In this document: positions 1-44,969 of the stretch, one piece after another
How positions within the stretch are numbered: position 1 is the stretch's first letter
Layout: every line of letters starts with the position of its first letter
Assembly: GCA_013287965.1 (NCBI GenBank)
Contig: JABDCU010000006.1
Span: forward strand, 2,216 to 66,215
Origin: Candidatus Omnitrophota bacterium
GTDB taxonomy: Bacteria > Omnitrophota > Gorgyraeia > Zapsychrales > Fredricksoniimonadaceae
DNA length: 64,000 nucleotides
Reading direction: 5' to 3'
Notes under the pieces: generated by a model
The model's database searches: none
What the model was told of the DNA's origin: nothing
Seen by the model: the letters and a program-made list of their open reading frames with translations, nothing else
Position numbers and translations under genes: made by a program

Positions 1-3000
1 TCACAGCGAGCTTGATTTATCCGGAGGACGAAATTGGCAAGAAATTTTGGAAACGCATTTACGAAGAAGCAGACAAGAAATTCGGCACAACCAATATTCC
101 TGTGAACACATTTAACAAGGTCTGGATCGTCCCCGAAAAAGCAGTTGTCTACGAAAACGCCAAAGCCGGCACAGCCTATGTGGTGGAAGCAAAATTAAAA
201 GTCATGCTTGAAGAAGACTATTTGTCTCTCTCTCACAATGTCATTCCCGCGCAAGCGGGAATCCACAACAAGAACGACATCAACGCCCTTGGCTCTCAAA
301 TTGTCCGTGAGATTGTCATTCCAGAATTGACCAAAGAAGTCAACTGCGGCCGCAATTTCGCCCAACTCCGCCAAGTTTACAACAGCCTCATCTTGGCCGC
401 CTGGTATAAAAAGAAAATCAAAGACAGTATCCTGGTTCAAGTGTATGACGATAGAAATAAAATCCAAGGCCTTGTCATTCCCGCGAAAGCGGGAATCCAC
501 AACAAGAACGACGTAGAACACATCTATCAACAATACCTAAAAGCCTTCAAAAAAGGCGTCTACAATTACATCAAAGAAGACCAAGACCCTTTGACCCAAC
601 AAACCATCCCAAGAAAATATTTTTCCGGTGGATTGAGAATGGTTGTCAATATACAGACCATGAGGGATTTACCGAGCTTTGCTATGTTACATTCAAACGA
701 TGGATATAGAGTGACAATGGATTTGGCAATGACAACCACTCCCGATACCAGAAGCCTTGTGCATCGTGTTCAGACGGCGGATGTTTATCCGGACATGGAG
801 CGAACAAATTTTATGTTTAAGTACGGACTGAAATTTGAACGCGCGGACCCCAAAGAGATCAGCAACATGCAGAATATGATCAAAAATCCGCTTACGGTTA
901 AAATAGATATTTACCGCCGTCAAGCTGCTGTCGGCCAATTGATCCACTTAGGGACAACGGGGCGTAGAGAATTAGATGGATTGCACGCAGCAGCCAGGTC
1001 TTGGAGTCATGCCCATGCCTGGCTGACTGGAAAAGATAGCGAACACCCGCAAGGCATGCTTGTTTCTTTGATAAACACAGGCAAGGTTAGCGTAGAAAAA
1101 TGGCAGCAGGAAGCCCAGCGCGTTCATAAAAAACAACAGGAAGAAATGCTTCGCAGGAAAGGAAATGAGAAAGAAAAAGAACCTCCTCCTGAAGAAACCG
1201 CTTATTTGGCCCTTGAAGCTGTCTATAATTTTTCTTCTTTATTTGATGGATTGATTAAAAGGCTCGAGGGCTTCAATGACCCCTTACTGCGTGAAATGGC
1301 TGAAGAATTAAACTCATTGAGGCAGGGGTTTTCTTCTCCGGAAGGGTTCTTGGATATTGTCCGCAGGAATGATCAGGAACAATTGGCCGCGATCCATCAG
1401 AAGGCTGATGTCATCGCAGGTAATTTATTGGATCTCGGGGCGCTGTTGTGTTTTGCTGACTACGCGCAAGAAAGAAAGTATGCTCAGGTCAGCTTTGAGG
1501 AAGGCCAGCCTGTTTATTATGAACAAGGAGAGCTTTTTACAGATACTGACGAGAATCAAACAAAGAATGGTAGCCCGGAGGACAGCCTTGTCACGGTCTT
1601 GACAGGCAGTAATATGTCCGGTAAATCACATTATTTAGAACAAAATTTTTACATTCAGCTTTTAGGGCAGGCCTTTGGCTGGGCACCGGTGCAAAAAGGG
1701 AATTTACGGATTTATAAATACATCGCCTATTTAGACCGGCCGCAGGGGGAATATGATTTAAGTTCCTGGGGAAAAGAAGTAACAAATTGGCTTCTTCCGG
1801 AACACCGCATCGGCCAAGACGCCATTTTCTTTGTGGACGAAGGATTTTCCACGACTTCTCCGGAAGACCAGGCCAAATTCCTGAAGGCCTTAAATTCTTT
1901 ACATCAATTGGCCATGAGCCGGGGCGTGCGTTTGATGCTTGCCACTCATAATGAGGAGTATATCAGTGTTAGCGGGAAGGACCGGCAAAAGGTGAAACTG
2001 TACCATTTGGGCGTAGAGGTAAAAAAAGATAAAATTAAATTTACGTATAAACTTAAAAGGGGCAGGGCAGATTCCAACGCCTTCGTTGTAGCACAGGTAT
2101 TGAATTTTCCGAAGCGTGTTTTAGACCGGGCCAAACGTTATGCCCGCGGGCAAGCCCAGCCGGTAAATAATATTGCCCGAAAGGAATTAATCCCTATTCA
2201 AGCATATTCACCTGCTGAACGGGAGGCTGAGAAAAATAAAAAAGGGGGATTTTTGGGATTTTTTCCAAATGATAGCGTATTGCAAATCGTTCCTGCCAAG
2301 GATTCTTGGGACAGGGGCGGTATCGGATGGCGCTATCTATTTAAGGAATATAACACGGTGGGAAAACCATGGAGTCGGCTTAATTCGCATGATTCAAAAG
2401 AGATCTTTCAGCACGATCCTGTTTTTAATGTTTGGAGCCAGGACCCGGATTTTGACGAGGACAGTTCTCCGATGGCAAGGCAGGTGGATTATGGCAAGTT
2501 GACAGGGCAAAAACACCACAGTTACCCTATGCAGAGGATCCACAGGCTTCTTATGGAAGCGTCGGCTCGCGATCCCAAAGAAATTTTAGAACGCCAAAGA
2601 ATGTTTGCTGCCCTTAAAGGATTGGAAAGCACTGATTTTATCAGCAGGCCTTTGGAAAAAGTAGAAGACTTTATGCGCGCGTTGGCCCCCTATGAAGGAG
2701 AGGAAACCTATGATGATGCGCGTTTTAACCTGCGCTTCTTGGAATCATCTGCTGAGATATTCAAACATATAAGTCATCGTAGTACGACGAAAGATCTTAA
2801 GGAAGCTGTGGAATTTTATCTTGGTGTTTTACGGATGAATCTACGGCTTGCCGGCCAAACAGAGAAGGGCTTAGGGGTTGAGGAAGAAATTTCCAAGATT
2901 AAGGAAGTTTTAAGCTTGCAAGAAAAGCTTGATACCTTAGAGCAAGGCAGTCCACGGCATAGCGGGGTAGAGTTCGAGGATGAAGTTTATCAAAAATGGT

Positions 3001-6000
3001 ACAAGGATATTTATGAGCCCAATTTTGACAGGATTTTAGAAAGATTAAGCGAATTAAAAGGCGCGTCGTTAGAATTTTTTGAAACCAAGATAACTGACAA
3101 TACTGAACTTATTGAACAATTTATCCAATCCATTAACACCAAGGTCATGGCTCAAGTACCTGCTTTTTCCGTTTATGATCCCAAGGTATGGGATATCCTG
3201 CGTCAGGAGGTTAATAATTTATATCCTTATGCGTATGAACAAATACAGGCATATTATGGTGGCGATGCTTTCCGAGGTATTGTGCGTTTAAAAAGTCTTT
3301 TGAGTGAGGAAGACGTTGTCAGGCAATTACTGGATGCCATGCGTACGGTAGATTCAGTGCATATGCATCAATGGAGCAATTATTTCGAAGAGATCTTGAA
3401 ATATTCGCTTGGGGCCGTGCGCACAGGCATGGATTATGTCCGGCAATCTGAAGAAAATAGAAAGAAAATACGTGAGCAGGCTTATTGGAATTATCACAAT
3501 TTTGATGAGTTTGAAAAACTGCAAACTATTTTAAATATTGCTTATGTGATCAAATATCAGGACTGGCAGCCGGTGGAATTAACGGACAAAATGCAGATCG
3601 ATATAAAAGGCGCCTGGAACCTGAATAGAAACAAACAGGAACAAGTTCCTTTGAATATGAAAATGGGGGACAATGAACTCCTGCGCATTTATTCCGGCTC
3701 CACGATGTCCGGTAAAACATTCGCGGAAAAAACACTGATATGGCTATCTTTGGCCGGAATGGCCACTGGTTTTGTGCCGGCACAGCGCGCAAAGCTGCCG
3801 GTTTTTGCCCATGTTTTATACCTGGACCGTATTGCAGAGAAACAATTTCGCCATTTGAGTTCTTTTGGCCAGGAAATCACCAACGAGAACGAATTTTTGG
3901 AAAAAGCGGCGGTGCCTGGAGTCGTGCTTGCCGTTGCTGATGAGATCGGGTCAACCACATCGCCGCGGTATCAGGAAGCATGGTCCTATGGTATTTCTGA
4001 GGAAATGCTTGAGGCGGGTAATTTCATGGTCCTCTCATCGCACAATCATCAATTCATTGAAGCCTTTTCCCGCAATAATAAAGAGAGGGTAGGGGTCTAT
4101 AATTTCAAAACCACTGTTGACAAGCAAGCGAATGTGGTTTTTAAACATAAGATCCAAAGAGGGCATGAAGCCAGCAACAGCCTTAGGGTCGCAAAAACCT
4201 TAGGCCTTAAACGGCTGACGGAAATGGTGGAACAGGACAACGCCATGCTCACCACCAGCCGACAAAAGGGCATTGCTTTCCCAAAAAGGCCTTCCGGCGT
4301 AGAAAATAAAATTTGGAATTTAGTACCTAATATCATTATGGTCCATATGATTGATTCGCCTAAATTATTGGATGGTTTGGAAAAGATCGTTCCAAGATTT
4401 AAAAAGCAGTTTATTTTGACATCTCCCCAGTTTCCTAAACCAGCTTTTTTAGGAAAAATTTTTTCCATCGGGAGTTCCTGGGGGGAATTTTCTCCTAAAT
4501 TTTATGAAAATTCTGTTTTTGTTGGCGGCCACATGATGGATTGCTTAGGTAAGTCTGTAGCAGATTTTTCAAAGGCAGCTTTTAAAGCAGGCAGGAGAAA
4601 GGTGACAGTATATTTGTTGGCACCATATGTTTGGACCAATTGGTCAGATAATACTCTTGAGGGTTTTCTACGAGATATGGATTCAAAAGGCGAATCAGTT
4701 AAAATGCTCAACCCATGGACATTTTTCTATAAAAAAAGTTATTTAGACATCATTTTTCGAAAACTTTTGACTGACAATAGGGTTGGTCAGCTGGCTTATT
4801 TGGATAAAGAATTTTTAAATTCATCAACGGTCAAGGTACGGGTCAATGGCGAAGAAAAAGTCATTTATAGCCAAGGCACAACACACACGTTAATTATTGA
4901 TATAGTCAGGGCCAACGACCCTCGATTGAAAATGGATAACTCAATGCTCACCGCCGGTCAGAAGAAATATATAGACGGCGGTTTTGAAAAGGAGATCGGC
5001 GTGCCGTGGGATGGGAAATATGGTTTATCAAAGTGGGCAAAGTCTGTGATTGAAGATCTTGAACCCGCAGAATTACAGGCAATCGCACAGGCAGCCGGGC
5101 CAAAGGCGGCAAAACAGGTGTTTAAGTTCGGGTTCGATACATTGAAAATAGAAAAGGTGTTTACTGCAAAGGACAAAGGATATGGGCCGGGATTGGTGGC
5201 CATGGCAGAGGCGGTTAAAGACAAGACAGGGTTTTTATTGGAAGTTGAATTACCTGGGGCGAAACGAGTAGTAGGCGCGCAGTTTATGGGATACTGGCCT
5301 GGCTTGGTCAGGATTGTACAGGCAGTTGGTCCCAATGCTGTCAATATCGAACCCTATGATGGTGATCTCGGTAAAAAACTTTTTTTAAAAAATGTATTAA
5401 TTACGCTAAAAGAAACTTTTAAAGACGAGTCTAAAGATGAAATTGAAAATGAGCGTGAGTTTAGGGAGCATTGGTGGCCAGAGCTGGTTGAGATGGCAGA
5501 GGCGCTCGGGCCTGACGCGGGAGATGTTCTTTTATACGCATTGCCGACGGTAAAAGGGGTATTGGGCAAGGACTTTAAAGGATATTATTGGCCGGGCTTG
5601 ATCATCATGGCACAAGCGGCAAAAGCCCATACGGTGCTTTTGTTTAAATTGACATTACCGCCATTAAAGAGATTATATGGTAAGAATTTTAAAGAATATT
5701 GGCCGGTATTGGTGGAGATCGCCCGGGATGCCGGGCCTCTCGTAAAATATGTCTTCCGTGGGCTACAGTTGGAGGGTGTGAAATCCCTCGTTTATGATAA
5801 GGAGAGTTTAAAAGAAATAGGCGGGACAGTACTCGACATATTGCACAAAGCCCAGGAGCGTGGGGGCGATCTTGAAGTTGTATTCCCGAGTTTGGCGAAA
5901 GTTAAGGAGGATCCTCAGACGCATGAGGTGGTGGATCCGGACCATATTTTTCTACCTGAGCAGATAAGTTTGATAAACCGGAACTTGGCGAACCATTACC

Positions 6001-7436
6001 ACGAAAATGCGGCGATGGTGTCCAAGAGCAAGGCTTTTAGCGACCGGGCGATGACCAAAGTGGTCAATGGCCATGGGCAGGAAGATCCACTTGTTGTGGA
6101 AGAAAAGATCAAAAAGTTTAATAACGATTTTATCAAATGGGAAAATGTTTGGGACGAAATGCACCGTCAATGGCTTCATGGAGGGGTCCTGATAGATTTT
6201 TGGTTGGGGAAAATCATGCGCGATCATTTGAATTTTAGGGATTATTCGCCTGAAGATTTGGGAGGAGGGGGACGGAGTTCTCCGATACCGTCCAATAAGG
6301 GCGTAATAATGTGGTATGCGTCTAACTCGAAATATCCTTCAGGGATGGTGCTTACTAAAGAGAATTTTATGCGTATGATGCTGGATTTACTTGAACGGGA
6401 CCAGCGCGCAGCAAGGATCTTGATGTGGCAGCTTATTAAAGCTAGCGATGATACAATTGGCCAAGAAGCCATGCACCGCATTGGTCAAGCAAAGGATGAA
6501 GTGGTTAGTCAATATCGGGTGGAAAGACTGGTCCGGTTGCTCCAAAAAGAAAAGATCAACAGGGCATCGTTTCATTTAATGGAGGATATTAAAGAAGTTT
6601 TTGGCAGTGTGACTGATTTTTATGCTTATGACAAAGGTTTTGATCCAGAAATTATTAATAAAACAAGAGGTGATATTGCGTTGAAATGGTCGCATCGGGG
6701 TGCAGATGAGATGCGATGGGGAATTTTAAAACCAGGCCACTTTAAGGCGCTGATCGCTGATCTATTGCAAAAAGATCCTCTGATGGCCAGAAAATTAATT
6801 ATCTCTATGTTAAAAATAAGCCCTAAGAAAGAACAGAAAGCCGTTAATGCCAGGGTCCGAAGAATAGGAGGACAGAAAAAACTGGATGAGATCAATGCCC
6901 TTGCTGATAAATTAATGCAGATGCCATATTTTACAATTTCGCCCCAGCTTGCAGAAGACATGTCACGGGTTTTAAGAAGATTTGGCTGGTATGCCCGGCA
7001 GGGAAAGATTTATATACCTGATAACTCTAAATTAGAGATAAAAGAAGCAGATGAAGTTCAATTCTTATATCATCTTCCAAAAGAAAAAGTCACTAAGGGG
7101 TTTAAGGCGGCCAGAAACAGGGTCCTTTACATATTGGCTGATTTATTGGAAAAGAATAAGTCTGTTTTTAATCAACTTGAACGTGAGGCGGCCAACGCTG
7201 CGATGTCGGTGGAGAATAGAGGTGGTATTGATTTCACCGCTAATAAGACACCGTTGGAGGTGAAAGTGGATTCCCGCTTGCGCGGGAATGACAATGGGAT
7301 ACAGTTTCACCTTGATCCTGCACAGCTTGCACAACTGCAAAATGCGCCTGGTTTTGTGCCGGTGATCATCAGTATTCAGCCCCTGGCTGGCGGACAGGCC
7401 GGGATAACGGATTTGCGCCATTTTTTGGAAACATAA
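1..7436 (+). CDS. Giant multidomain protein, 5' end outside window (2,477 codons visible): conserved N-module, two MutS-type ATPase modules, helical repeats, conserved C-module
   Basis: One uninterrupted frame from the window edge (codon phase starts at nt 3; T-A-S-L-I-Y equals aa 156-161 of the paralog at 38261) to the TAA at 7434-7436. The TTG at 12 in the ORF track is therefore not the real start. Domain evidence is given in the sub-features. Confidence 0.85.
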   Translation, partial: TASLIYPEDEIGKKFWKRIYEEADKKFGTTNIPVNTFNKVWIVPEKAVVYENAKAGTAYVVEAKLKVMLEEDYLSLSHNVIPAQAGIHNKNDINALGSQIVREIVIPELTKEVNCGRNFAQLRQVYNSLILAAWYKKKIKDSILVQVYDDRNKIQGLVIPAKAGIHNKNDVEHIYQQYLKAFKKGVYNYIKEDQDPLTQQTIPRKYFSGGLRMVVNIQTMRDLPSFAMLHSNDGYRVTMDLAMTTTPDTRSLVHRVQTADVYPDMERTNFMFKYGLKFERADPKEISNMQNMIKNPLTVKIDIYRRQAAVGQLIHLGTTGRRELDGLHAAARSWSHAHAWLTGKDSEHPQGMLVSLINTGKVSVEKWQQEAQRVHKKQQEEMLRRKGNEKEKEPPPEETAYLALEAVYNFSSLFDGLIKRLEGFNDPLLREMAEELNSLRQGFSSPEGFLDIVRRNDQEQLAAIHQKADVIAGNLLDLGALLCFADYAQERKYAQVSFEEGQPVYYEQGELFTDTDENQTKNGSPEDSLVTVLTGSNMSGKSHYLEQNFYIQLLGQAFGWAPVQKGNLRIYKYIAYLDRPQGEYDLSSWGKEVTNWLLPEHRIGQDAIFFVDEGFSTTSPEDQAKFLKALNSLHQLAMSRGVRLMLATHNEEYISVSGKDRQKVKLYHLGVEVKKDKIKFTYKLKRGRADSNAFVVAQVLNFPKRVLDRAKRYARGQAQPVNNIARKELIPIQAYSPAEREAEKNKKGGFLGFFPNDSVLQIVPAKDSWDRGGIGWRYLFKEYNTVGKPWSRLNSHDSKEIFQHDPVFNVWSQDPDFDEDSSPMARQVDYGKLTGQKHHSYPMQRIHRLLMEASARDPKEILERQRMFAALKGLESTDFISRPLEKVEDFMRALAPYEGEETYDDARFNLRFLESSAEIFKHISHRSTTKDLKEAVEFYLGVLRMNLRLAGQTEKGLGVEEEISKIKEVLSLQEKLDTLEQGSPRHSGVEFEDEVYQKWYKDIYEPNFDRILERLSELKGASLEFFETKITDNTELIEQFIQSINTKVMAQVPAFSVYDPKVWDILRQEVNNLYPYAYEQIQAYYGGDAFRGIVRLKSLLSEEDVVRQLLDAMRTVDSVHMHQWSNYFEEILKYSLGAVRTGMDYVRQSEENRKKIREQAYWNYHNFDEFEKLQTILNIAYVIKYQDWQPVELTDKMQIDIKGAWNLNRNKQEQVPLNMKMGDNELLRIYSGSTMSGKTFAEKTLIWLSLAGMATGFVPAQRAKLPVFAHVLYLDRIAEKQFRHLSSFGQEITNENEFLEKAAVPGVVLAVADEIGSTTSPRYQEAWSYGISEEMLEAGNFMVLSSHNHQFIEAFSRNNKERVGVYNFKTTVDKQANVVFKHKIQRGHEASNSLRVAKTLGLKRLTEMVEQDNAMLTTSRQKGIAFPKRPSGVENKIWNLVPNIIMVHMIDSPKLLDGLEKIVPRFKKQFILTSPQFPKPAFLGKIFSIGSSWGEFSPKFYENSVFVGGHMMDCLGKSVADFSKAAFKAGRRKVTVYLLAPYVWTNWSDNTLEGFLRDMDSKGESVKMLNPWTFFYKKSYLDIIFRKLLTDNRVGQLAYLDKEFLNSSTVKVRVNGEEKVIYSQGTTHTLIIDIVRANDPRLKMDNSMLTAGQKKYIDGGFEKEIGVPWDGKYGLSKWAKSVIEDLEPAELQAIAQAAGPKAAKQVFKFGFDTLKIEKVFTAKDKGYGPGLVAMAEAVKDKTGFLLEVELPGAKRVVGAQFMGYWPGLVRIVQAVGPNAVNIEPYDGDLGKKLFLKNVLITLKETFKDESKDEIENEREFREHWWPELVEMAEALGPDAGDVLLYALPTVKGVLGKDFKGYYWPGLIIMAQAAKAHTVLLFKLTLPPLKRLYGKNFKEYWPVLVEIARDAGPLVKYVFRGLQLEGVKSLVYDKESLKEIGGTVLDILHKAQERGGDLEVVFPSLAKVKEDPQTHEVVDPDHIFLPEQISLINRNLANHYHENAAMVSKSKAFSDRAMTKVVNGHGQEDPLVVEEKIKKFNNDFIKWENVWDEMHRQWLHGGVLIDFWLGKIMRDHLNFRDYSPEDLGGGGRSSPIPSNKGVIMWYASNSKYPSGMVLTKENFMRMMLDLLERDQRAARILMWQLIKASDDTIGQEAMHRIGQAKDEVVSQYRVERLVRLLQKEKINRASFHLMEDIKEVFGSVTDFYAYDKGFDPEIINKTRGDIALKWSHRGADEMRWGILKPGHFKALIADLLQKDPLMARKLIISMLKISPKKEQKAVNARVRRIGGQKKLDEINALADKLMQMPYFTISPQLAEDMSRVLRRFGWYARQGKIYIPDNSKLEIKEADEVQFLYHLPKEKVTKGFKAARNRVLYILADLLEKNKSVFNQLEREAANAAMSVENRGGIDFTANKTPLEVKVDSRLRGNDNGIQFHLDPAQLAQLQNAPGFVPVIISIQPLAGGQAGITDLRHFLET
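240..278 (+). repeat. In-frame palindromic hairpin element, copy A (27-nt core + 12-nt tail), translated VIPAQAGIH-NKND
   Basis: Sequence is gtcATTCCCGCgcaaGCGGGAATccac: an 8-bp perfect stem with a GCAA (GNRA) loop, 27 nt = 9 codons. It is 38/39 identical to 474-512, and the core is 27/27 identical to the reverse complement of 7266-7292. Confidence 0.9.
474..512 (+). repeat. In-frame palindromic hairpin element, copy B, translated VIPAKAGIH-NKND
   Basis: Sequence is gtcATTCCCGCgaaaGCGGGAATccac + aacaagaacgac, with a GAAA loop. The core is 27/27 identical to the reverse complement of 43211-43237. The paralog has no element at this site (GYKNSIN instead). Confidence 0.9.
1404..2147 (+). other. 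MutS-type ATPase module 1 (domain V-like, with preceding core-like helices)
   Basis: Motifs appear in the canonical MutS domain V order: Walker A VLTGSNMSGKSHYLEQ (GSNMSGKS at 1605-1628), Walker B FFVDEGFSTTSPEDQ, LMLATHNEE, then FTYKLKRGRADSNAFVVAQVLNFP. Confidence 0.7.
3534..4226 (+). other. MutS-type ATPase module 2
   Basis: Second copy of the same motif series: IYSGSTMSGKTFAEK (GSTMSGKT at 3696-3719), LAVADEIGSTTSPRYQ, VLSSHNHQF, FKHKIQRGHEASNSLRVAKTLGL. Confidence 0.7.
5058..5816 (+). repeat. About six degenerate ~37-45-aa helical repeats (HEAT/ARM-like) inside the giant ORF
   Basis: Recurring unit [FY]xG-[YW]WP[GEV]L[VI]xxAxAxGP...LP..K...GK.F. Examples: YGPGLVAMAEAV, YWPGLVRIVQAVGPNA, WWPELVEMAEALGPDAG, YYWPGLIIMAQAAKAH, YWPVLVEIARDAGPLV. 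Confidence 0.6.
7221..7436 (+). repeat. Conserved C-terminal module (partner 43163-43360)
   Basis: GGIDF..(hairpin insert)..GIQFHLDPAQLAQLQNAPGFVPVIISIQPL aligns with GGIDL...GIQFHLDPAMLAQLQNAPGFVPVIINIQPL in the second giant ORF. Confidence 0.85.
7266..7292 (-). repeat. In-frame hairpin element in opposite orientation, translated VDSRLRGND
   Basis: gtgGATTCCCGCttgcGCGGGAATgac is the exact reverse complement of 240-266. Confidence 0.9.
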
Positions 7437-30209: not shown

Positions 30210-30877
30210 AAATAGCCATTATCATTCCGGCGCATAATGAAGCCCAGACCATTGGTCCCCTGGTTGGGGCTGTGCGCGCCTTGGGGTATGACTGTATTGT
30301 GATCGATGATGGTTCGGTGGACCATACTGATGCCGTGGCCATCAAAGCAGGCGCCGTGGTGTTAAAGACCGGAATCAAAAGCGGCAAGGGCAATGCCTTA
30401 AAGGCCGGATTTGATCACGTGCTTAAGAATGGTTATGAGGCCGCCATCGCCATGGATGGTGACGGCCAGCATTCACCGTCGGATATCGCGGCATTCGCGG
30501 CTTGTTATCAAAATACAAACGCGGACATTATCAACGGTAACCGTATGCACAACCCGCGGGGAATGCCCTTGGTGCGCCTGATCACCAACCGGTTCATGTC
30601 CTGGCTGATCTCTCTTTTTTGCCGCCAAAGTATTCCGGACACGCAATGTGGTTTTCGCCTGATCAAAACAAAGGTGCTTAAAGCCATTAAACTTACAAGT
30701 TCTGATTTTGAGATCGAGACTGAGGTGCTGATCAAGGCCAGTAAAAAAGGTTTTAAAATAGCCTCGGTGGATATACAGACCATTTATAGGGATGAGAAGA
30801 GCAAGATCCAGCCGGTGCGCGACACCTTTCGTTTCATGGCCTATTTAGGGCGTGAGCTTTTGGGGAAAAATGACTGA
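30206..30877 (+). CDS. Family 2 glycosyltransferase
   Basis: MKIAIIIPAHNEAQTI...VIDDGSVDHT...MDGDGQH. ATGA overlap with the upstream gene. Confidence 0.8.
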   Translation: MKIAIIIPAHNEAQTIGPLVGAVRALGYDCIVIDDGSVDHTDAVAIKAGAVVLKTGIKSGKGNALKAGFDHVLKNGYEAAIAMDGDGQHSPSDIAAFAACYQNTNADIINGNRMHNPRGMPLVRLITNRFMSWLISLFCRQSIPDTQCGFRLIKTKVLKAIKLTSSDFEIETEVLIKASKKGFKIASVDIQTIYRDEKSKIQPVRDTFRFMAYLGRELLGKND

Positions 30878-31538
30878 AAATTTTATTTTTAAGGCCGTGT
30901 TTATTTCGTTGGCCGCTCATACAGCGTTCTTGTGCGTCACTTATCTTAGCCGGATCCATGACCCGCATTATCAGGCCGTCCGCCAGGGCCGGATCGAGAT
31001 CACCTACAAGCCGATCCATCTAAGATCTGCTGATATCCGGGAGCATCCTGTCAAGCCGGCCCAGCACCTGGATTTAAGTAATAATCCTAAATTTCTTTCC
31101 GACGGGAGCATACCTGTCAGCCTGGTCAAAGAACGGCCGACACTGCCTTTTGGGATGTTCTATGAACGTAAGTCCGAACGCATGCGCACCATGGAGTTAA
31201 GCCATAGGGTTTCCATTACGCCTATCAGATCGGAAAAAATAAATAATCCGGTTTATGCTGCTTATAATGAAATGGTGCGGGAGCGCATCAAGGAAAAAGT
31301 TTACGCCAATTATGACAAGATGGAGCGGGGTTCTGTGTATTTGACGTTTTTGTTGGATGAACATGGCGTGCTTAAAGACGCAAGGATCATAGAGGAGAAA
31401 ACCGATGCCTCAGAACATCTGCAGGAGATCGCCATGAGGAGTCTCCAAGAAGCCAGCCCATTCCCGCCTTTTTTAAAAGGCATGAATCTCACCGAATACC
31501 CCTTCAACATTGAGATCCAGTACCAAGTCAGTGATTGA
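30870..31538 (+). CDS. TonB-family C-terminal-domain protein (N-terminal membrane anchor)
   Basis: TM helix FIFKAVFISLAAHTAFLCV and a C-terminal G.VYLTF.LD..G.L.DARI......S....L...A..S...ASPFPPFP-like fold. Confidence 0.6.
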   Translation: MTENFIFKAVFISLAAHTAFLCVTYLSRIHDPHYQAVRQGRIEITYKPIHLRSADIREHPVKPAQHLDLSNNPKFLSDGSIPVSLVKERPTLPFGMFYERKSERMRTMELSHRVSITPIRSEKINNPVYAAYNEMVRERIKEKVYANYDKMERGSVYLTFLLDEHGVLKDARIIEEKTDASEHLQEIAMRSLQEASPFPPFLKGMNLTEYPFNIEIQYQVSD

Positions 31539-31623
31539 TCAAATTCCAGGCCACCCGCCGCAATTTTAATTTTGACTTTTTCAATATCCAATGATAATGT
31601 AATGCACTTTAGAGAGATGAAAT

Positions 31624-31653
31624 GGATTCCCGACAGAAGCATTCGGGAATGAC
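31624..31653 (-). repeat. Hairpin element of the GGATTCCC...GGGAATGAC family, intergenic
   Basis: GGATTCCCGAcagaagcatTCGGGAATGAC has an 8-bp perfect stem and ends 14 nt before ATG 31668 (gggag RBS in between). Confidence 0.75.
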
Positions 31654-38260: not shown

Positions 38261-41200
38261 TTGCATACTTTATATAGTATGGAGAGGACCCCAAGATTCC
38301 CTGTTTCTTGCTTTTCAAAGCGGCTTTATAGGTCGTGGGGTTTTTTTGTCGTTTTAACCGCCTTTTTGGCTAATTCCTTTGGGCCTCTGCCTTTGGCTCA
38401 AGCTCAAGAGTTTCGTCTGCCTGCGCCCGGAGTAATGGTCCGTTTAAGCCCTGAATTCAATCCGCCAATATTAAAAGGCCTCAAAGTCCATCCTAACAAT
38501 CCTTTCCGTTTCGATTTCATTTTGGACAAAGGTGATTCATCGGTTCCTCTTAAGCCCGAAGCCACCAAACTGATCAAATATTTCCTCTCCAGCTTAACCA
38601 TCCCTGAAAAAGATTTATGGGTTAATCTTTCGCCATATGAGAAAAATAGGATCATCCCCCAAAGTTTCGGTTTAACCGAAATGGGCAGGGACCTTTTGGC
38701 TGAAGACTATATGCTCAAGCAGATCACTGCAAGTTTAATTTATCCTGAGGATGAGATAGGTAAGAAATTCTGGAAACGCATTTATGAAGAAGCCGCGAAG
38801 AAATTTGGTACAACCAACATCCCGGTCAATACGTTCAATAAGGTCTGGATAGTGCCTGAAAAAGCCGTTGTCTACGAAAACTCCAAGGCCGGCACAGCTT
38901 ATGTGGTGGAAGCAAAACTTAAGGTCATGCTTGAGGAAGATTATTTGTCTCTTTCCCATCATGTCATTCCTGCGAAAGGTCGTATTGACCGACACTCGCA
39001 GTTGCTCGCGGGAATCCAGAACACGAGCGCCCTTGGCTCTCAAATCGTCCGCGAGATAGTCATCCCCGAACTGACCAAAGAGATCAACCAAAACAAAAAC
39101 TTCGCCCAGCTCCGCCAGGTCTATAATTCGCTTATTTTAGCCACCTGGTACAAAAAGAAGATCAAAGACAGTATTCTGGCTCAAGTGTATGAAGACAAAA
39201 AGAAAGTAGCAGGTGTAGGATACAAGAATTCCATCAACATTGAAGCCATCTACCAGCGCTACCTCCAAGCCTTCAAAAAAGGCGCCTATAACTATATCAA
39301 AGAAGAACAAGACCCGTTGACCCAGCAAGTCATTCCCAGGAAATATTTTTCAGGAGGGGCTGCTTTTAATAATAAAGCTATGTTAGTAGCGATGAAATTT
39401 ACCACCCAGATGCCAAAGAGTCAGACAGGATTACAGGAAATTGATATCAATTTGGCAATGGCACACCAGGAAGGATTTATCAGGACCCGCCATGATCATC
39501 CATCGTGGGAAAATCAGGCCCAGCAATTCCATGATCTTTATGGGGAAAGCCACGCCAAGGAAGCCTATCTTCTATATGGGACCAACTATGATATTAGGCA
39601 AGGCGATGTACGGATTCTTGCTTCTATACTTAATGCCCATCATATATTTCCTAAACCCGGCGGGACCCTGGTTGTTGCCGGGTTTGGAAGTCGTCTTAGC
39701 GAGTTGCCAATGCTTCAGAAACTTTTCCAAGCCAGCCGGGTGCTCGGAGTGGATTGGATGCAGTCCGTTATTGATCGGGCGGATATTTATCTTAGGCAAC
39801 AGGACGTCTCTCCTGACGTTTTCGGTCTTTACCACGAAGATGTAAGAGATATGCATTCATTCATTAAGGATGATTCCGTTGATGTTTTTTTTGCACAATT
39901 GATCACAGAACATGACTATTCACGTGAATCTGAAAAACTTAATGAGATCCTGCGCATACTCAAGCCTGGAGGCGTTGCTTTTCTTGGTGGATGCGGGGCT
40001 GATTTTGCTAAAGATATTCCTCCCGGTTTAGAGGTGAAAGTCATCAATTCAGGAAGAAGTATTATCTTGTATAAAGCAGGGAAAAGAGGAGCAGAAAGTC
40101 AGGCAATGTCGGCCCCGGTCCCTGCCCAAAATAAGGTGGCGAAATCACCGCAAGCCCGCAAGGCGCAGGCCAAGCCTGGTGATAAGGCGATGGTTGAATT
40201 AATTGATAAGCGTTTAAAAAGGGCTGCCGAAGCAGAACAAGTAGCCGTGCTGAATTATCATCCTGACATTCCCGGAACGCGGGAAGCCCTTATAGCAATG
40301 TTAGGGTTTTTAGGGCAATCTTATTATGAAGTGACAAAGGAGAATTTAGCCACAACGCTTAAGAGAGGTGATGGCAGGTGGTTGAATGTTGTTGTTGCTC
40401 CTGATGATTTGCCGTTTGCAAGTGATGAACAAAGGGAAGCTTTTTTGAACCTGATCCACGTACAAGCCGGGAAAGAGGTCAGTTTGGAAACCATTGGTGA
40501 TGTGTCCAGGTATCAAGATAAAGATTTGACTGTATTTTCTAGAAAGCTTAGGGATAATTTGACTGATTTATATAGTATTGAGGGGTTTAGGTTCATGGTG
40601 CGGAAATTAATTCAAAAAAGAGGAGATAAACGTGATGACGCACATCTAAAATTGGCGGTTTTTGATATAGATCATTTAGGATCAATTAATTCGATTTGGG
40701 GCCATGATCAGGGTAACAAAGTCGTAGTAGGTACGTCCGGGGTTTTCGAGTCTGTCGTTAGGCCTGATGAAATTATTGCCCATTTACACGGTGGTGATGA
40801 ATTTGCCATATTAACGGAAGGGTCAGAAGATCGTCCTCAACAGATCCTCAAGGCAATCAGGGAAAAGATGCATCAGTTTCTTCCTTATACCAGGGAAAAA
40901 GTGATTGAACAGCTCAAGTCAAAGAGGCTTGAAAATGATAAAGATGATGCTTATGATGGAATGATATATCAGTTGGCTTTACAGAATCCCCAAAAGGGTA
41001 AGAACCCTGCTGTTATTGAGAGTGTCTTAAAACGAAAGTTTAAGAGTTTAAAACAAATTGTCGTAGAACTGGAGCAACCGGAATCGCCATATAAATTTGA
41101 AGGACCGCGCCTCACATATAGTATGGGTGTTGTTGATTTTGACGAAAACGAAACAACAAAACTTCCCAGAGATCGTGTTGGGATTAGAAAACTAGTCGAC

Positions 41201-43360
41201 AGTCTTTATGCACAGGCTGACGAGCATTTGCTAGTTGCCAAAAGCAAGGGGAGGGATCGGGTTTGGGAAGAACCTTATAGAGATTCAGCCATGGTGATGA
41301 ATTCATCGCAAGCCAGCGACAGGGCCATGGCCCAAGAGCATGAAGCGACGGCCCAGGAGCTTGGATGGTTTTTTATGAACCATGATCTTTTTCTCACATT
41401 TCCGGTTTTTTCTAACCACGCCAAGACCAATAAGGTCAAACGAGGAATATATTTGCCCCATGATGAAGTCAAGAAATTACTGGGGATCGTTAAAAAATCC
41501 AGCCTTTCAAAATATGAGGGTTCGGGCACAGTTTTGGATGCCAATAATCGAAACATTTGGGAAGAAATCTCCGTCCCAGCAAATAAAGAAGAGGGTATTG
41601 CCCCTTCAGCAGATGAAATAGAAGTGCGCTTAAAACCTGATATTATTATCACAGAAAGTGATTTTCGGGGCATGGTAAAAAATGGCGGTGACTTTGACCA
41701 TATTGCGGCCATTGTCAAACAGGTACAGGATAGAAAATTGAAAGCAGTTACGAGGGGGCCGGGGATGGTAGATTTTTTTTGGAAGCCGGGGCAGGAGTAT
41801 AAATGGACAATGATCACAAAAGAACCGGTCGACCAGGTGTCCGTTGTCCCATCAGGAGAATATGATCAGATCAATTTTGAGGATTTTGTAACAGTAGGAG
41901 ACAAGAAAAATTATAAAATTTGGGTTGAAGGGGGATCAGTAATGTTCCAGGTTTATAATAAAGATGGCAGTGTTCCCCTAAAAAATATCGTAAAGGCGAA
42001 GGTAATGAAGCTAAAATCAGCTGAAGGGACCTTTTTTGATATCAACGATAAAGAGAGCGTCTGGGAACAGGGCGATTCCCCGGAAGAGATGCATTTAAAG
42101 CCCCATTTTTTTATAGATGCGAAATTGAAAGATGAGAGTAGGAAATTGGCAAGGATGCCGGGAAAAGAGCATTATGATAGTTTGGAAGACGCTGCCCGGA
42201 AAATCTTAAAAGGCAATGATGTAATAGAATTTTTGAAGATCTTGAAAGAAGCCCAAGAAGAGATGGAAGTAAAAAGACTTCCCTGGCAGGGGTTTTATGT
42301 TGAAGAAAAAGCCTTCAGGTTCCATGTTCAGGAAAGGGAGAAGGGTAAATATACGTTATATTTTCGAAGCCTTAAAGCATCTCCCACTTTACGGTGGAAA
42401 GCTGTTCCGGTTGATCCGTTGATCTTGGGGGCCTTTCAGAATGCGGGGGATAAAAAGAAATCGTTTGGATTTGTTGATACAATAAAAGGATTGGCTGTGT
42501 TGATGGCGGGGGACGCTCCTGGACTAAGGGATGGGTTTCAGGTGTTGACGGAAGAGCTTTCTAACAAGGAGGCGCGGGAAATAGCCAATGATACACAGGA
42601 AGGGCTCAGGTTTTTCTTGCAAAAGTCAGTCATTAAGGCATGGGGCGCCATTATAGAACATACCATGAATAGAAATTATGTTTATGATTCTGCTAAACAC
42701 CATCCGGATATTATGGCGGCTGCCTATGGGAAAGATGAGAAAGGCCATCCCATTATCATTGTAGTCTATACGGGCGCAGGGAATCTGTATGAGCTCAGGC
42801 ACAAAACACACTCACATTCTGAGGTCCTCACGCTTTTGAACATTCAGGAAAATCGTTTAGGTATAAAAGTGTCATTAGTAAAAGATTTGAGGGAAGGAGA
42901 TTCTGTAATTATGATGTCCGGCAGGGGCGAACTCGAAGAAGGTGTTGCTTTTCATGATGATGACGATGACACCCCGGAAGGAATTGCCCAGACGTATCTG
43001 CCCAGCGATATAAGGCAAATTAAGAAAAATCCTGGCATACTGGTTTTTCGTATTGTCAATGCCGCTATGTCTTCCGCAAATATTTTAGCCGGCAGGAATA
43101 TTAAAACAAGGCCAAGTGCCCGGGTGGGTTTAAAAGGTCAAGTAAGGAGACAGTTGAAAAACGGCGGTATTGATCTGACCCCTGCGCGTATGGATTTACA
43201 GACTAAAGTAGTGGATTCCCGCTTTCGCGGGAATGACAAAGGGATTCAGTTTCACCTTGACCCTGCCATGCTGGCCCAACTGCAAAACGCCCCTGGCTTT
43301 GTGCCGGTGATCATCAATATCCAGCCATTAAATGATTTGAAAGCATTCTTGGCTGGCTAA
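38261..43360 (+). CDS. Giant exported multidomain protein (1,699 aa): signal peptide, conserved N-module, methyltransferase-like region, GGDEF domain, ~600 aa unassigned, conserved C-module
   Basis: Single ORF; likely start is ATG 38279 (MERTPRFPVSCFSKRLYRSWGFFVVLTAFLANSFGPLPLAQA/QE, a Sec-type signal). N- and C-modules are paralogous to ORF 1-7436. Confidence 0.9.
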   Translation: MHTLYSMERTPRFPVSCFSKRLYRSWGFFVVLTAFLANSFGPLPLAQAQEFRLPAPGVMVRLSPEFNPPILKGLKVHPNNPFRFDFILDKGDSSVPLKPEATKLIKYFLSSLTIPEKDLWVNLSPYEKNRIIPQSFGLTEMGRDLLAEDYMLKQITASLIYPEDEIGKKFWKRIYEEAAKKFGTTNIPVNTFNKVWIVPEKAVVYENSKAGTAYVVEAKLKVMLEEDYLSLSHHVIPAKGRIDRHSQLLAGIQNTSALGSQIVREIVIPELTKEINQNKNFAQLRQVYNSLILATWYKKKIKDSILAQVYEDKKKVAGVGYKNSINIEAIYQRYLQAFKKGAYNYIKEEQDPLTQQVIPRKYFSGGAAFNNKAMLVAMKFTTQMPKSQTGLQEIDINLAMAHQEGFIRTRHDHPSWENQAQQFHDLYGESHAKEAYLLYGTNYDIRQGDVRILASILNAHHIFPKPGGTLVVAGFGSRLSELPMLQKLFQASRVLGVDWMQSVIDRADIYLRQQDVSPDVFGLYHEDVRDMHSFIKDDSVDVFFAQLITEHDYSRESEKLNEILRILKPGGVAFLGGCGADFAKDIPPGLEVKVINSGRSIILYKAGKRGAESQAMSAPVPAQNKVAKSPQARKAQAKPGDKAMVELIDKRLKRAAEAEQVAVLNYHPDIPGTREALIAMLGFLGQSYYEVTKENLATTLKRGDGRWLNVVVAPDDLPFASDEQREAFLNLIHVQAGKEVSLETIGDVSRYQDKDLTVFSRKLRDNLTDLYSIEGFRFMVRKLIQKRGDKRDDAHLKLAVFDIDHLGSINSIWGHDQGNKVVVGTSGVFESVVRPDEIIAHLHGGDEFAILTEGSEDRPQQILKAIREKMHQFLPYTREKVIEQLKSKRLENDKDDAYDGMIYQLALQNPQKGKNPAVIESVLKRKFKSLKQIVVELEQPESPYKFEGPRLTYSMGVVDFDENETTKLPRDRVGIRKLVDSLYAQADEHLLVAKSKGRDRVWEEPYRDSAMVMNSSQASDRAMAQEHEATAQELGWFFMNHDLFLTFPVFSNHAKTNKVKRGIYLPHDEVKKLLGIVKKSSLSKYEGSGTVLDANNRNIWEEISVPANKEEGIAPSADEIEVRLKPDIIITESDFRGMVKNGGDFDHIAAIVKQVQDRKLKAVTRGPGMVDFFWKPGQEYKWTMITKEPVDQVSVVPSGEYDQINFEDFVTVGDKKNYKIWVEGGSVMFQVYNKDGSVPLKNIVKAKVMKLKSAEGTFFDINDKESVWEQGDSPEEMHLKPHFFIDAKLKDESRKLARMPGKEHYDSLEDAARKILKGNDVIEFLKILKEAQEEMEVKRLPWQGFYVEEKAFRFHVQEREKGKYTLYFRSLKASPTLRWKAVPVDPLILGAFQNAGDKKKSFGFVDTIKGLAVLMAGDAPGLRDGFQVLTEELSNKEAREIANDTQEGLRFFLQKSVIKAWGAIIEHTMNRNYVYDSAKHHPDIMAAAYGKDEKGHPIIIVVYTGAGNLYELRHKTHSHSEVLTLLNIQENRLGIKVSLVKDLREGDSVIMMSGRGELEEGVAFHDDDDDTPEGIAQTYLPSDIRQIKKNPGILVFRIVNAAMSSANILAGRNIKTRPSARVGLKGQVRRQLKNGGIDLTPARMDLQTKVVDSRFRGNDKGIQFHLDPAMLAQLQNAPGFVPVIINIQPLNDLKAFLAG
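38963..39019 (+). repeat. Expanded (57-nt) in-frame version of the hairpin element, translated VIPAKGRIDRHSQLLAGIQ
   Basis: Arms gtcATTCCTGCgaaa...GCGGGAATccag match the 27-nt element. 30 extra nt (ggtcgtattgaccgacactcgcagttgctc) sit at the loop. It occupies the same site as copy A (240-266) in the paralog. Confidence 0.8.
39644..40015 (+). other. Class I SAM-dependent methyltransferase-like region
   Basis: GGTLVVAGFGSRLSE (divergent motif I), VLGVDWMQSVIDRA, DVFFAQLITEH, LRILKPGGVAFLGG. Confidence 0.45.
40568..41269 (+). other. GGDEF (diguanylate cyclase-type) domain
   Basis: LAVFDIDHLGSINSIWGHDQGNKVV, HGGDEFAIL (GGDEF at 40790-40804), TYSMGVVDF, ADEHLLVAKSKGRDRV. Confidence 0.75.
43211..43237 (-). 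repeat. In-frame hairpin element, opposite orientation, translated VDSRFRGND
   Basis: gtgGATTCCCGCtttcGCGGGAATgac is the exact reverse complement of 474-500 and occupies the same site in the C-module as 7266-7292. Confidence 0.9.
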
Positions 43361-44895: not shown

Positions 44896-44969
44896 GCGGG
44901 GTTCATACAGTGGTAGTATTTCAGCTTCCCAAGCTGACTGCGCGGGTTCGATTCCCGCACCCCGCTCCA
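44896..44969 (+). tRNA. tRNA-Gly (anticodon CCC), CCA encoded
   Basis: Hand-folded. Acceptor GCGGGGT/ACCCCGC, D arm ATAC/GTAT, anticodon stem TCAGC/GCTGA with loop TTCCCAA, T arm GCGGG-TTCGATT-CCCGC, discriminator T, then CCA. Confidence 0.9.

Follow-up and report, generated by a model that had tools for sequence, protein, structure and literature searches.

Results

A 27-nt and a 57-nt element at one site in paralogous genes

The subject of this analysis is a 57-nt composite hairpin at 38963..39019 (+ strand) in a 64,000-nt stretch of DNA from a Candidatus Omnitrophota bacterium. The whole stretch is referred to as the window, and all coordinates are positions within it. The composite lies inside an open reading frame (ORF), ORF2 (38261..43360, +), whose product has a signal-like N-terminus, a conserved N-terminal module of ~330 aa, a methyltransferase and GGDEF core and a conserved C-terminal module. 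ORF2 stays open across the insert for 1699 codons, with Methyltransf_11 and GGDEF domains (Pfam) downstream. A paralogous host gene, ORF1 (1..7436, +), is truncated by the window edge. It shares the N-terminal module and the C-terminal module of ~60 aa (pattern GGIDxTP...GIQFHLDPAxLAQLQNAPGFVPVII.IQPL) and has a core of MutS_V type; the cores of the two proteins are unrelated.

The composite consists of a hairpin host and a nested module. A GTC tag (38963-38965) is preceded by a T, giving T-GTC at 38962-38965, and is followed by the 5' arm ATTCCTGC (38966..38973) and the loop GAAA (38974-38977). The 30-nt module GGTCGTATTGACCGACACTCGCAGTTGCTC comes next (38978..39007). It is of type 1, with 0 mismatches to the type-1 module; one G at its boundary can be assigned to either side. 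Inside it, GTCG (38979-38982) pairs with CGAC (38990-38993) as a small hairpin, in the stem of which a G-C pair becomes C-G in type 2. The 3' arm GCGGGAAT (39008..39015) and the conserved tag CCA(G), here CCAG (39016-39019), complete the element, all parts of which lie on the + strand. The arms are 34 nt apart and both are intact except for one wobble, T38971 opposite G39010, the only T-G pair among 8. Compared with the family consensus TGTCATTCCCGCGAAAGGTCGTATTGACCGACACTCGCAGTTGCTCGCGGGAATCCA, the sole difference is an arm base changed from C to T. The insert is translated in frame as VIPAKGRIDRHSQLLAGIQ.

The corresponding site of ORF1, termed site A in both genes, is occupied by the plain 27-nt element GTCATTCCCGCGCAAGCGGGAATCCAC (240..266, +; translated VIPAQAGIH). 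This is the empty-loop counterpart of the composite, and its core at 243-262 fits ATTCCC(N8)GGGAAT. Both elements begin at one alignment column, directly behind the codons for LSLSH(N/H). The linker 3' of the element differs by 9 nt (AACAAGAACGACATCAAC in ORF1, AACACGAGC in ORF2), and the paralogs rejoin at GCCCTTGGC. The original prediction had described the 57-mer as the arms of the 27-mer with 30 extra nucleotides and a single T-G wobble in the stem, and the pair as length variants of one element at one site that keep the frame of ORF2; direct reading of the sequence, which shows both arms and tags of the 27-mer (GTC-ATTCCYGC...GCGGGAAT-CCAG), and the alignment of ORF1 with ORF2 agreed on every point. 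It had also called the paralogs anciently diverged. That label has to be qualified: the N-terminal module has 81% DNA and ~95% protein identity, but 19/47 of its fourfold-degenerate sites differ.

The 57-mer as a dispersed unit

The search for copies covered ~1.6 Mb of Omnitrophota sequence in all, in loci picked because a member of one gene family, or the element, lies in them. A genome sample of 80 loci (L001-L080) around family members makes up 1.18 Mb together with the window and is called unbiased here. One metagenome scan for CAGTTGNTCGCGGGAATCCA, a pattern that needed the 3' arm adjacent to the module, gave 50 loci, ~40 of them with the entire 57-mer in unrelated flanks. At ≤13 mismatches to the consensus, 39 copies of the 57-mer were counted (38 beyond the window), comprising 22 distinct sequences; 14 copies were identical to the consensus. 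They came from >10 metagenome samples and 3 Omnitrophota metagenome-assembled genomes (MAGs), and their flanks were unrelated. A long ORF spans 12 of the copies, and the remaining 27 are outside such ORFs. The 27-mer was present in 45-52 copies in the ~1.6 Mb, with 19 in long ORFs and 26 outside (58-69% of elements outside).

The same 57-nt build with a homologous interior was found at L017:3092-3148, at a distance of 7 kb from the family gene; it is intergenic there, in a gap between two minus-strand ORFs, and closely precedes one of the two on its upstream side. ORF-borne 57-mers occupy site A in L143, L167, L176 and L183 (with a 54-nt derivative in L180), a second site of the family, site B, in L150 and L149, and a third family site in L159. 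A further one lies in a protein unrelated to the paralog family, HemD-like by eye (L173). In the flank logo a T stands at -4 in 51/52 27-mers and 36/39 57-mers and GTC is nearly invariant; the tag is TGTC in ~95% of copies and CGTC in 1 27-mer and 3 57-mers. Three module subtypes recur and coexist on single contigs. When ORF2 was compared with L183 at the same site, the element was 56/57 identical and the flanking third-codon positions 54%. With 39 copies of the finished element, the 57-mer is a standard multi-copy unit and not a growth peculiar to ORF2, and the idea of a local expansion in this gene had to be given up.

Shuffling the window gave an expectation of 0.00 for arm pairs with short loops, the pattern used reaching a gap of 33 nt only; the 57-mer, with its 34-nt gap, lies outside that pattern and was found by a separate scan. 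Given this expectation and the presence of the whole 57-mer at 38 further places, the 57-nt hairpin is not a chance arrangement.

Scans of viral contigs specific for the 57-mer gave no match, or chance matches in unrelated coding sequence. A general scan of viral contigs for expanded arms returned 52 loci, mostly duplicated 5' half-arms before a normal hairpin or nested G+C hairpins, and the 30-nt module was in none of the 52. Expanded versions of this hairpin are thus common in other lineages. Among the viral contigs, the form seen most often consists of tandem arrays of the 5' half-arm with a short spacer (e.g. GTCATTCCCGCTTCTCATTCT x4) that run into one complete hairpin; such arrays were seen at L172:4345-4454, L038:17531-17602 (-) and in the viral-contig loci L089-L132. 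A 40-aa query of the doubled peptide gave no match, though contigs of the Joint Genome Institute (JGI) encode the peptide, and this result marks a limit of sensitivity and not absence.

The 30-nt module as an independent repeat

The insert was also searched for on its own, with up to 5 mismatches. The loci contain 57 copies; in 14 cases the host is not the ATTCCCGC hairpin, and the same holds for 4/7 copies in the unbiased 1.18 Mb. Three other hairpin types carry the module directly before their 3' arm. The host in L176 is GTCATTCTGAGGCGAA^GCCGAAGAATCTC, of which 2 empty copies exist; that in L171 is a 9-nt-loop hairpin from a family of 29 copies in the loci that likewise has empty versions; that in L051 is ATCCCAGC/GCGGGGAT, with at least 1 exact empty copy, in L010. 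Further contexts are ..GAA^GCAAT.. in four loci, a position after a terminator (L180) and positions beside hairpins (L010, L047).

The base 3' of the module is always G, and the commonest junction is ..GAA^GC... In all hairpin hosts the module has a single orientation and its ends are fixed. Insertions of the module into itself were also found, with a reverse-complement module inside a module in L164 and direct module-in-module insertions in L166 and L135/L161. At the module junctions no target-site duplication was seen beyond one ambiguous G. The module occurs between genes, in several frames and in both orientations. It is shown by these data to be a discrete, independently dispersed unit with fixed ends, a junction preference and multiple hosts.

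The family of 9-nt-loop hairpins has the consensus GTC-A(T/C)(T/C)CCCGA-ATGYTTYTR-TCGGG(R)(R)T-CCAG, and its members include copies in L018, L030, L035, L041, L044, L047, L063 and L065. The arms covary (ATTCCCGA, ATCCCCGA, ACCCCCGA and GTTCCCGA, each with its own complement). In L065 the element lies inside a real ORF, and the conserved core therefore need not equal the net insert.

Sites A and B in the protein family

Named homologues of the N-terminal module are all labelled Candidatus Omnitrophica/Omnitrophota. There are 593 relatives of the module in GTDB species representatives, and single MAGs have at least 9 paralogs. The protein collection holds one record of the ORF2 protein, counted from M38279, as a singleton cluster. 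In 120 protein homologues and 93 loci, site A contains 7 to ~50 unrelated residues between ...KVMLEEDYL.L.. and ..LGSQIVREIVIPEL. The fillers of sites A and B are often recognisable translated repeats (SERSEES, SAAKDL..PQND, GSKPT..EPAPT, PGDMALAVSPS, ETPFMAS, DAINRVST), and both loops are general landing sites, not restricted to the ATTCCCGC hairpin. The landing-site regions of ORF2 span 38945-39030 (site A) and 39050-39110 (site B).

An AlphaFold model of the N-terminal module had a mean predicted local distance difference test (pLDDT) score of 74.6. The score fell below 50 at residues 187-203, the element being residues 187-205, and was also low at the second site (265-281). The element is thus predicted to occupy a disordered loop. 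A fold search of the PDB with this model gave no significant match. Since site A of the homologues is filled by unrelated and variable residues (7-50 aa), and the module is also found intergenically, in multiple frames and in both orientations, the 30 nt are not ancestral protein sequence, an objection that the original prediction had raised against itself.

A second filled/empty pair was found in L167, where two tandem sister paralogs ~4.4 kb apart have closely similar flanks and differ by exactly 30 nt at site A. The indel lies between GCG(A/C)AA and GCGGGAAT, the same pattern as in ORF1/ORF2. This indel, together with the discrete module at or near the loop/3'-arm junction elsewhere and its self-nested copies, upholds the earlier suggestion that the element grows at its loop. 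Mapped on a neighbour-joining tree built from the domain, the site-A states (empty, 27, 57 and others) are interspersed, and close relatives of ORF2 carry unrelated inserts at site A. The 27- and 57-nt states at site A probably either interconvert in place by gain and loss of the module or are overwritten by conversion from other copies.

Between ORF1 and ORF2 the shared parts of the element show 3/27 differences vs 19/47 at fourfold sites (P = 0.0009). The 57-mer has 1 difference from its consensus, against ~14 predicted by the neutral per-lineage rate (P about 3e-6). By these comparisons the elements are younger than the paralogs, or homogenised, or constrained. Universal constraint is disfavoured by the decayed site-A copies in L006, L008 and L025.

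Length and reading frame

The original prediction had held that only frame-preserving variants survive in ORFs, which should show as a genic enrichment of lengths divisible by 3. Such lengths made up 37/38 elements in ORFs vs 64/74 outside (one-sided Fisher p = 0.06), and among the minor length variants only, 6/7 vs 11/21 (p = 0.13); the enrichment is not significant, and the same two lengths dominate both contexts, largely the outcome that the prediction had named as its own refutation. Off-frame derivatives of 56 nt (L138, L156) occur exclusively outside long ORFs, and the derivatives within ORFs measure 54, 51, 48, 45, 78 and 87 nt. A frame filter may therefore act on rare derivatives. As 27 and 57 nt dominate outside ORFs too, a frame survival argument is unneeded: divisibility by three is a property of the two units, and a frame filter does not account for the 27 and 30 nt.

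Structure of the hairpin and the module

In a single-stranded DNA fold the outer stem of the composite is retained and lengthened to 10 bp, and an inner hairpin of 4-5 bp is added. The DNA fold z ranged from -2.8 to -4.7 for consensus forms and was -1.4 for the window copy with its wobble. An Rfam search of the element at a permissive threshold found no family, and a known small RNA or ribozyme was rejected on that ground. A promoter, suggested by TTGACC within the module, was rejected because type-2 modules are without TTGACC. A repeat of the CRISPR (clustered regularly interspaced short palindromic repeats) kind was rejected for want of arrays.

Other features of the window

In addition to the elements at site A, the window contains other plain hairpins. 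Site B of ORF1 holds a 27-nt element (474..500, +; VIPAKAGIH), and no element lies at site B of ORF2. The C-terminal modules of both genes contain a 27-nt element at the same site in reverse orientation, at 7267..7293 (-) in ORF1 (DSRLRGND) and 43212..43238 (-) in ORF2 (DSRFRGND). A 9-nt-loop hairpin, GTC-ATTCCCGA-ATGCTTCTG-TCGGGAAT-CCA (31623..31653, -), is intergenic, between ORF 30852-31538 and a DUF1844 gene, upstream of the latter. Thus 4/5 plain window copies are intragenic, and all window copies are solitary.

The two site copies in ORF1 (239-278 vs 473-512) have 40 nt in common at 98%, including the 3' tail CACAACAAGAACGAC (HNKND). Elsewhere ~1/4 of copies, intergenic ones included, are followed by a NAACAA-like tail. 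A longer element subfamily, or conversion between sites A and B, is a possible source of the common tail.

ORF1 also contains four internal repeats at 5185-5729, ~111-291 nt apart, that encode ..(Y/W)WP(G/E/V)L(V/I)..(M/I)A(E/Q/R)A... An Rfam match to SNORD36 at 4690-4759 (-) inside ORF1 (32 vs gathering 30 bits, E = 0.36) is almost certainly a false positive, SNORD36 being a eukaryotic small nucleolar RNA family and the region bacterial coding sequence. The T-arm GCGGGTTCGATTCCCGC of a tRNA-Gly(CCC) gene (44896-44969) includes the 8-mer of the repeat's 5' arm, ATTCCCGC, at 44951-44958; its GCGGG/CCCGC stem is as in the repeat with the order reversed, and the likeness is probably a coincidence. 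The remaining genes are those of an ordinary chromosome (his, prs, pth, dnaB, bamA, lpx, efp, acc, pfk, recO and others). A Pfam scan of 52 window ORFs gave housekeeping or uncharacterised families and no transposase or recombinase domain.

Discussion

A small repeat nested in a small repeat

The insert in ORF2 is a composite of two very small repeats, probably carried as passenger DNA and formed when its module moved at the DNA level. The host is the 27-nt hairpin repeat (T)GTC-ATTCCCGC-GAAA-GCGGGAAT-CCA, which has the core of the Neisseria repeat dRS3 and is common in Omnitrophota, both genic and intergenic. The 30-nt module is a second repeat, placed exactly between the GAAA loop and the 3' arm. 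It may enter hairpin loops as a non-autonomous DNA element, probably on extruded single-stranded hairpins, moved in trans by an enzyme whose gene lies elsewhere in the genome; a single-strand transposase of the HUH type would be the most plausible enzyme class for a unit of this size. The composite would then spread as the plain 27-mer does, or be copied from hairpin to hairpin. For ORF2 the insert would be a passenger: the loop of the N-terminal module that contains it is hypervariable and predicted to be disordered, and given this position, a length of 19 codons and no stop in frame, the protein would tolerate it. Tolerated selfish DNA inside a giant protein is the most likely description.

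Several observations weigh against this account. No enzyme, transposition intermediate or target-site duplication beyond the ambiguous single G was found, and we therefore infer mobility from distribution only. No gene for a RAYT-like (REP-associated tyrosine transposase, REP being a repetitive extragenic palindromic sequence) or Y1 transposase was seen in the window; in the ~1.6 Mb of loci, a tblastn search with RAYT and IS200 TnpA queries gave no match either, a weak result of low weight. The module after a terminator in L180 and that beside a hairpin in L047 stand in contexts other than hairpin loops. The module alone is without significant structure (DNA fold z = -0.2). Pair counting over 21 distinct 57-mers gave 93% paired cells and one compensated pair per helix, and this covariation is too thin for claiming a selected structure of the module. 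The ratio of composite to stand-alone modules is biased in the metagenome loci by a search pattern that required the adjacent 3' arm. Moreover, the extreme conservation across species could mean a host function instead.

The first of the alternatives dispenses with transposition. Template switching or short-patch gene conversion between hairpin repeats, with the arms as microhomology, might have copied the interior of one hairpin into another during stalled replication or repair, turning 27-mer into 57-mer and back in place and keeping the copies homogeneous. All composites do have identical junctions and one orientation, sister paralogs alternate between the 27- and 57-nt states, elements at the same site are 56-57/57 identical in diverged paralogs whose synonymous sites are near saturation, and no transposase was found among the window ORFs or, with the RAYT and IS200 TnpA queries, in the loci. 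Nevertheless, some hosts of the module share only ~GAA^GC with the dRS3-like hairpin and others have no hairpin, so that arm-guided copying fails there; the inverted self-nesting in L164 demands a strand switch; and the decayed site-A copies (L006, L008, L025) indicate that homogenisation is not universal. As the full explanation this was considered rather unlikely, but template switching or conversion may be the cause of the in-place 27/57 alternation. A simpler account would have slippage or a duplication expand the loop once, in ORF2 alone, or would take the insert for ancestral coding sequence with an inverted repeat around it by chance. It agrees with what the window alone offers, where the module has a single copy and no second one was found in the 64 kb. 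It was given next to no credence, being already refuted by 38 further 57-mers and 14 further module copies with unrelated flanks, by the absence of the segment from homologues and by the intergenic copy in L017.

Two further readings assign the element a use. The paralog family might recruit repeat cassettes that diversify two or three surface loops, the peptide or its variation being useful. The family is hugely expanded (593 matches), sites A and B are hot spots with many repeat-derived peptides in at least 93 family members, and one peptide recurs at site A in L143, L167, L176 and L183. Yet conservation is at the nucleotide level, with synonymous variation absent; the same DNA is also found between genes, reversed and in other frames; disorder is predicted for the peptide; and unrelated inserts occupy the site in close relatives of ORF2. 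Such recruitment seems improbable. The hairpin, with or without the module, might otherwise be a selected nucleic-acid signal, such as a site for protein binding or recombination, or a hairpin in the mRNA that affects its stability or translation, and its presence in ORFs would be incidental. In favour stand the near-identical sequence across species and samples and the covarying arms of the related 9-nt-loop family; the 20-nt core equals the dRS3 pattern of Neisseria, another phylum (PMC3898611), and REPs are reported to act in RNA stability and termination (PMC3733652). However, the copies examined lie upstream, downstream and inside of genes in both orientations, with no consistent gene-relative position, no Rfam family matches, and decayed copies persist in genes, which makes a selected signal a doubtful proposition, much on a level with recruitment of the peptide.

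Relation to known repeats

The composite of two nested repeats, as preferred here, can be set beside several known systems. The dRS3 repeat of Neisseria, ATTCCC(N8)GGGAAT, is 20 bp long with 6-bp terminal inverted repeats and ~700 copies; intergenic mosaics are built from it, and the Nf1 prophage targets it (PMC3898611). Di Nocera et al. class it as the CGTC-1 family of a CGTC-tagged REP superfamily that occurs in several phyla, sometimes genic and in frame, without a dedicated transposase; no enzyme is known to mobilise these repeats, and their origin and spread are an open question (PMC3733652). The 20-nt core of the Omnitrophota element, ATTCCCGCGAAAGCGGGAAT, fits the dRS3 pattern exactly, as seen in the window at 243-262, 477-496, 7270-7289 and 43215-43234; the composite, with its 34-nt gap, does not fit N8. 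Both are short, multi-copy, dispersed stem-loops with GTC at one end and no attached transposase, and Neisseria dRS3 is likewise combined with other short repeats (RS elements) into mosaics. They differ in that the host here is Omnitrophota, the tag is TGTC (~95%) instead of CGTC, window copies are single and not arrayed, ~40% of the examined copies are inside long ORFs, and the second repeat lies inside one hairpin and not between two complete dRS3 units. The element thus resembles dRS3 by pattern, which may reflect homology or convergence, and the plain 27-nt element belongs to, or lies near, a known kind.

Neisseria intergenic mosaic elements (NIME) are intergenic arrays of RS repeats (30-160 bp), each with complete dRS3 units on both sides, whereas the module lies within a single hairpin; the half-arm arrays in L172 and L038 also differ in build. 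Rickettsia palindromic elements (RPE) lie in frame within genes (Ogata 2000, as reviewed in PMC3733652), those of the RPE-1 type being ~100-150 bp long and confined to Rickettsia, and recB of Xanthomonas offers an intragenic REP precedent for repeated site use in related genes (PMC3733652). As with these, ORF2 has a translated palindromic repeat at a permissive position with the ORF intact, and in both cases one gene can be struck at two sites and one site in related genes. The elements described here are smaller than RPE, at 27 and 57 nt, of another family, nested in build and hosted by Omnitrophota, and the loops of one paralog family are struck recurrently by many repeat families.

The small dispersed repeats (SDR) of cyanobacteria, described by Elhai et al. 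in 2008 (Genome Res 18:1484), are reportedly shorter than ~30 nt, mobile-looking, mutually nested and sometimes genic, with no coding capacity. By these traits the likeness is one of behaviour only, seen in the nesting in L164, L166 and L135/L161 and in the four hairpin families; sequences and phylum are unrelated. Miniature inverted-repeat transposable elements (MITE) are 70-300 bp long, with terminal inverted repeats of 15-30 bp and a target-site duplication. The elements found here have 27-57 nt, arms of 8-10 bp and no duplication beyond one ambiguous G, and they fall outside that class.

Insertion into REP-type hairpins has precedents, listed among the references of PMC3116915: IS1397 and ISKpn1 insert into the loops of E. 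coli palindromic units, and elements of the IS110 family of insertion sequences (IS) into REPs. The likeness lies in a foreign segment that enters such a hairpin in one orientation. Those elements measure 1-1.5 kb and have their own transposase, whereas the module has 30 nt and no coding capacity and would therefore need to be moved in trans. The short hairpin repeats of the REPIN/RAYT system are believed to travel as single-stranded DNA with the help of a domesticated HUH tyrosine transposase that acts in trans (PMC3116915), and the RAYT gene there is flanked by REPs. Unlike REPINs, the elements here have no GTAG tag and are singletons, not inverted doublets.

Implications

What is new is the module at the loop/3'-arm junction, its spread both to other hairpins and to its own copies, and the repeated filling of loops, in frame, in a family of giant paralogs. 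It is a tentative thought that the module is among the smallest mobile DNAs, a parasite of a parasite that would home, guided by structure and not by sequence, to the loop/3'-arm junction of single-stranded hairpins from several repeat families and, through an unrecognised enzyme that perhaps also moves CGTC/dRS3 repeats, would join the host hairpins in constantly rewriting the surface loops of a very large Omnitrophota protein family. The filled/empty pairs (ORF1/ORF2, L167a/L167b) and the self-nested copies define where the module starts and stops, how it is oriented and which junction it prefers (..GAA^GC..), and the 30-nt unit is a concrete substrate for finding the enzyme behind CGTC/dRS3-type repeats.

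In Omnitrophota and in many metagenomic proteins, peptides such as VIPAKAGIQ, DSRFRGND and VIPAKGRIDRHSQLLAGIQ stem from translated repeats, not from protein motifs, and should be masked in homology, domain and selection analyses. For the family itself, the recurrent filling of two loops in a massively expanded N-terminal module of unassigned structure is a separate lead on how giant proteins vary.

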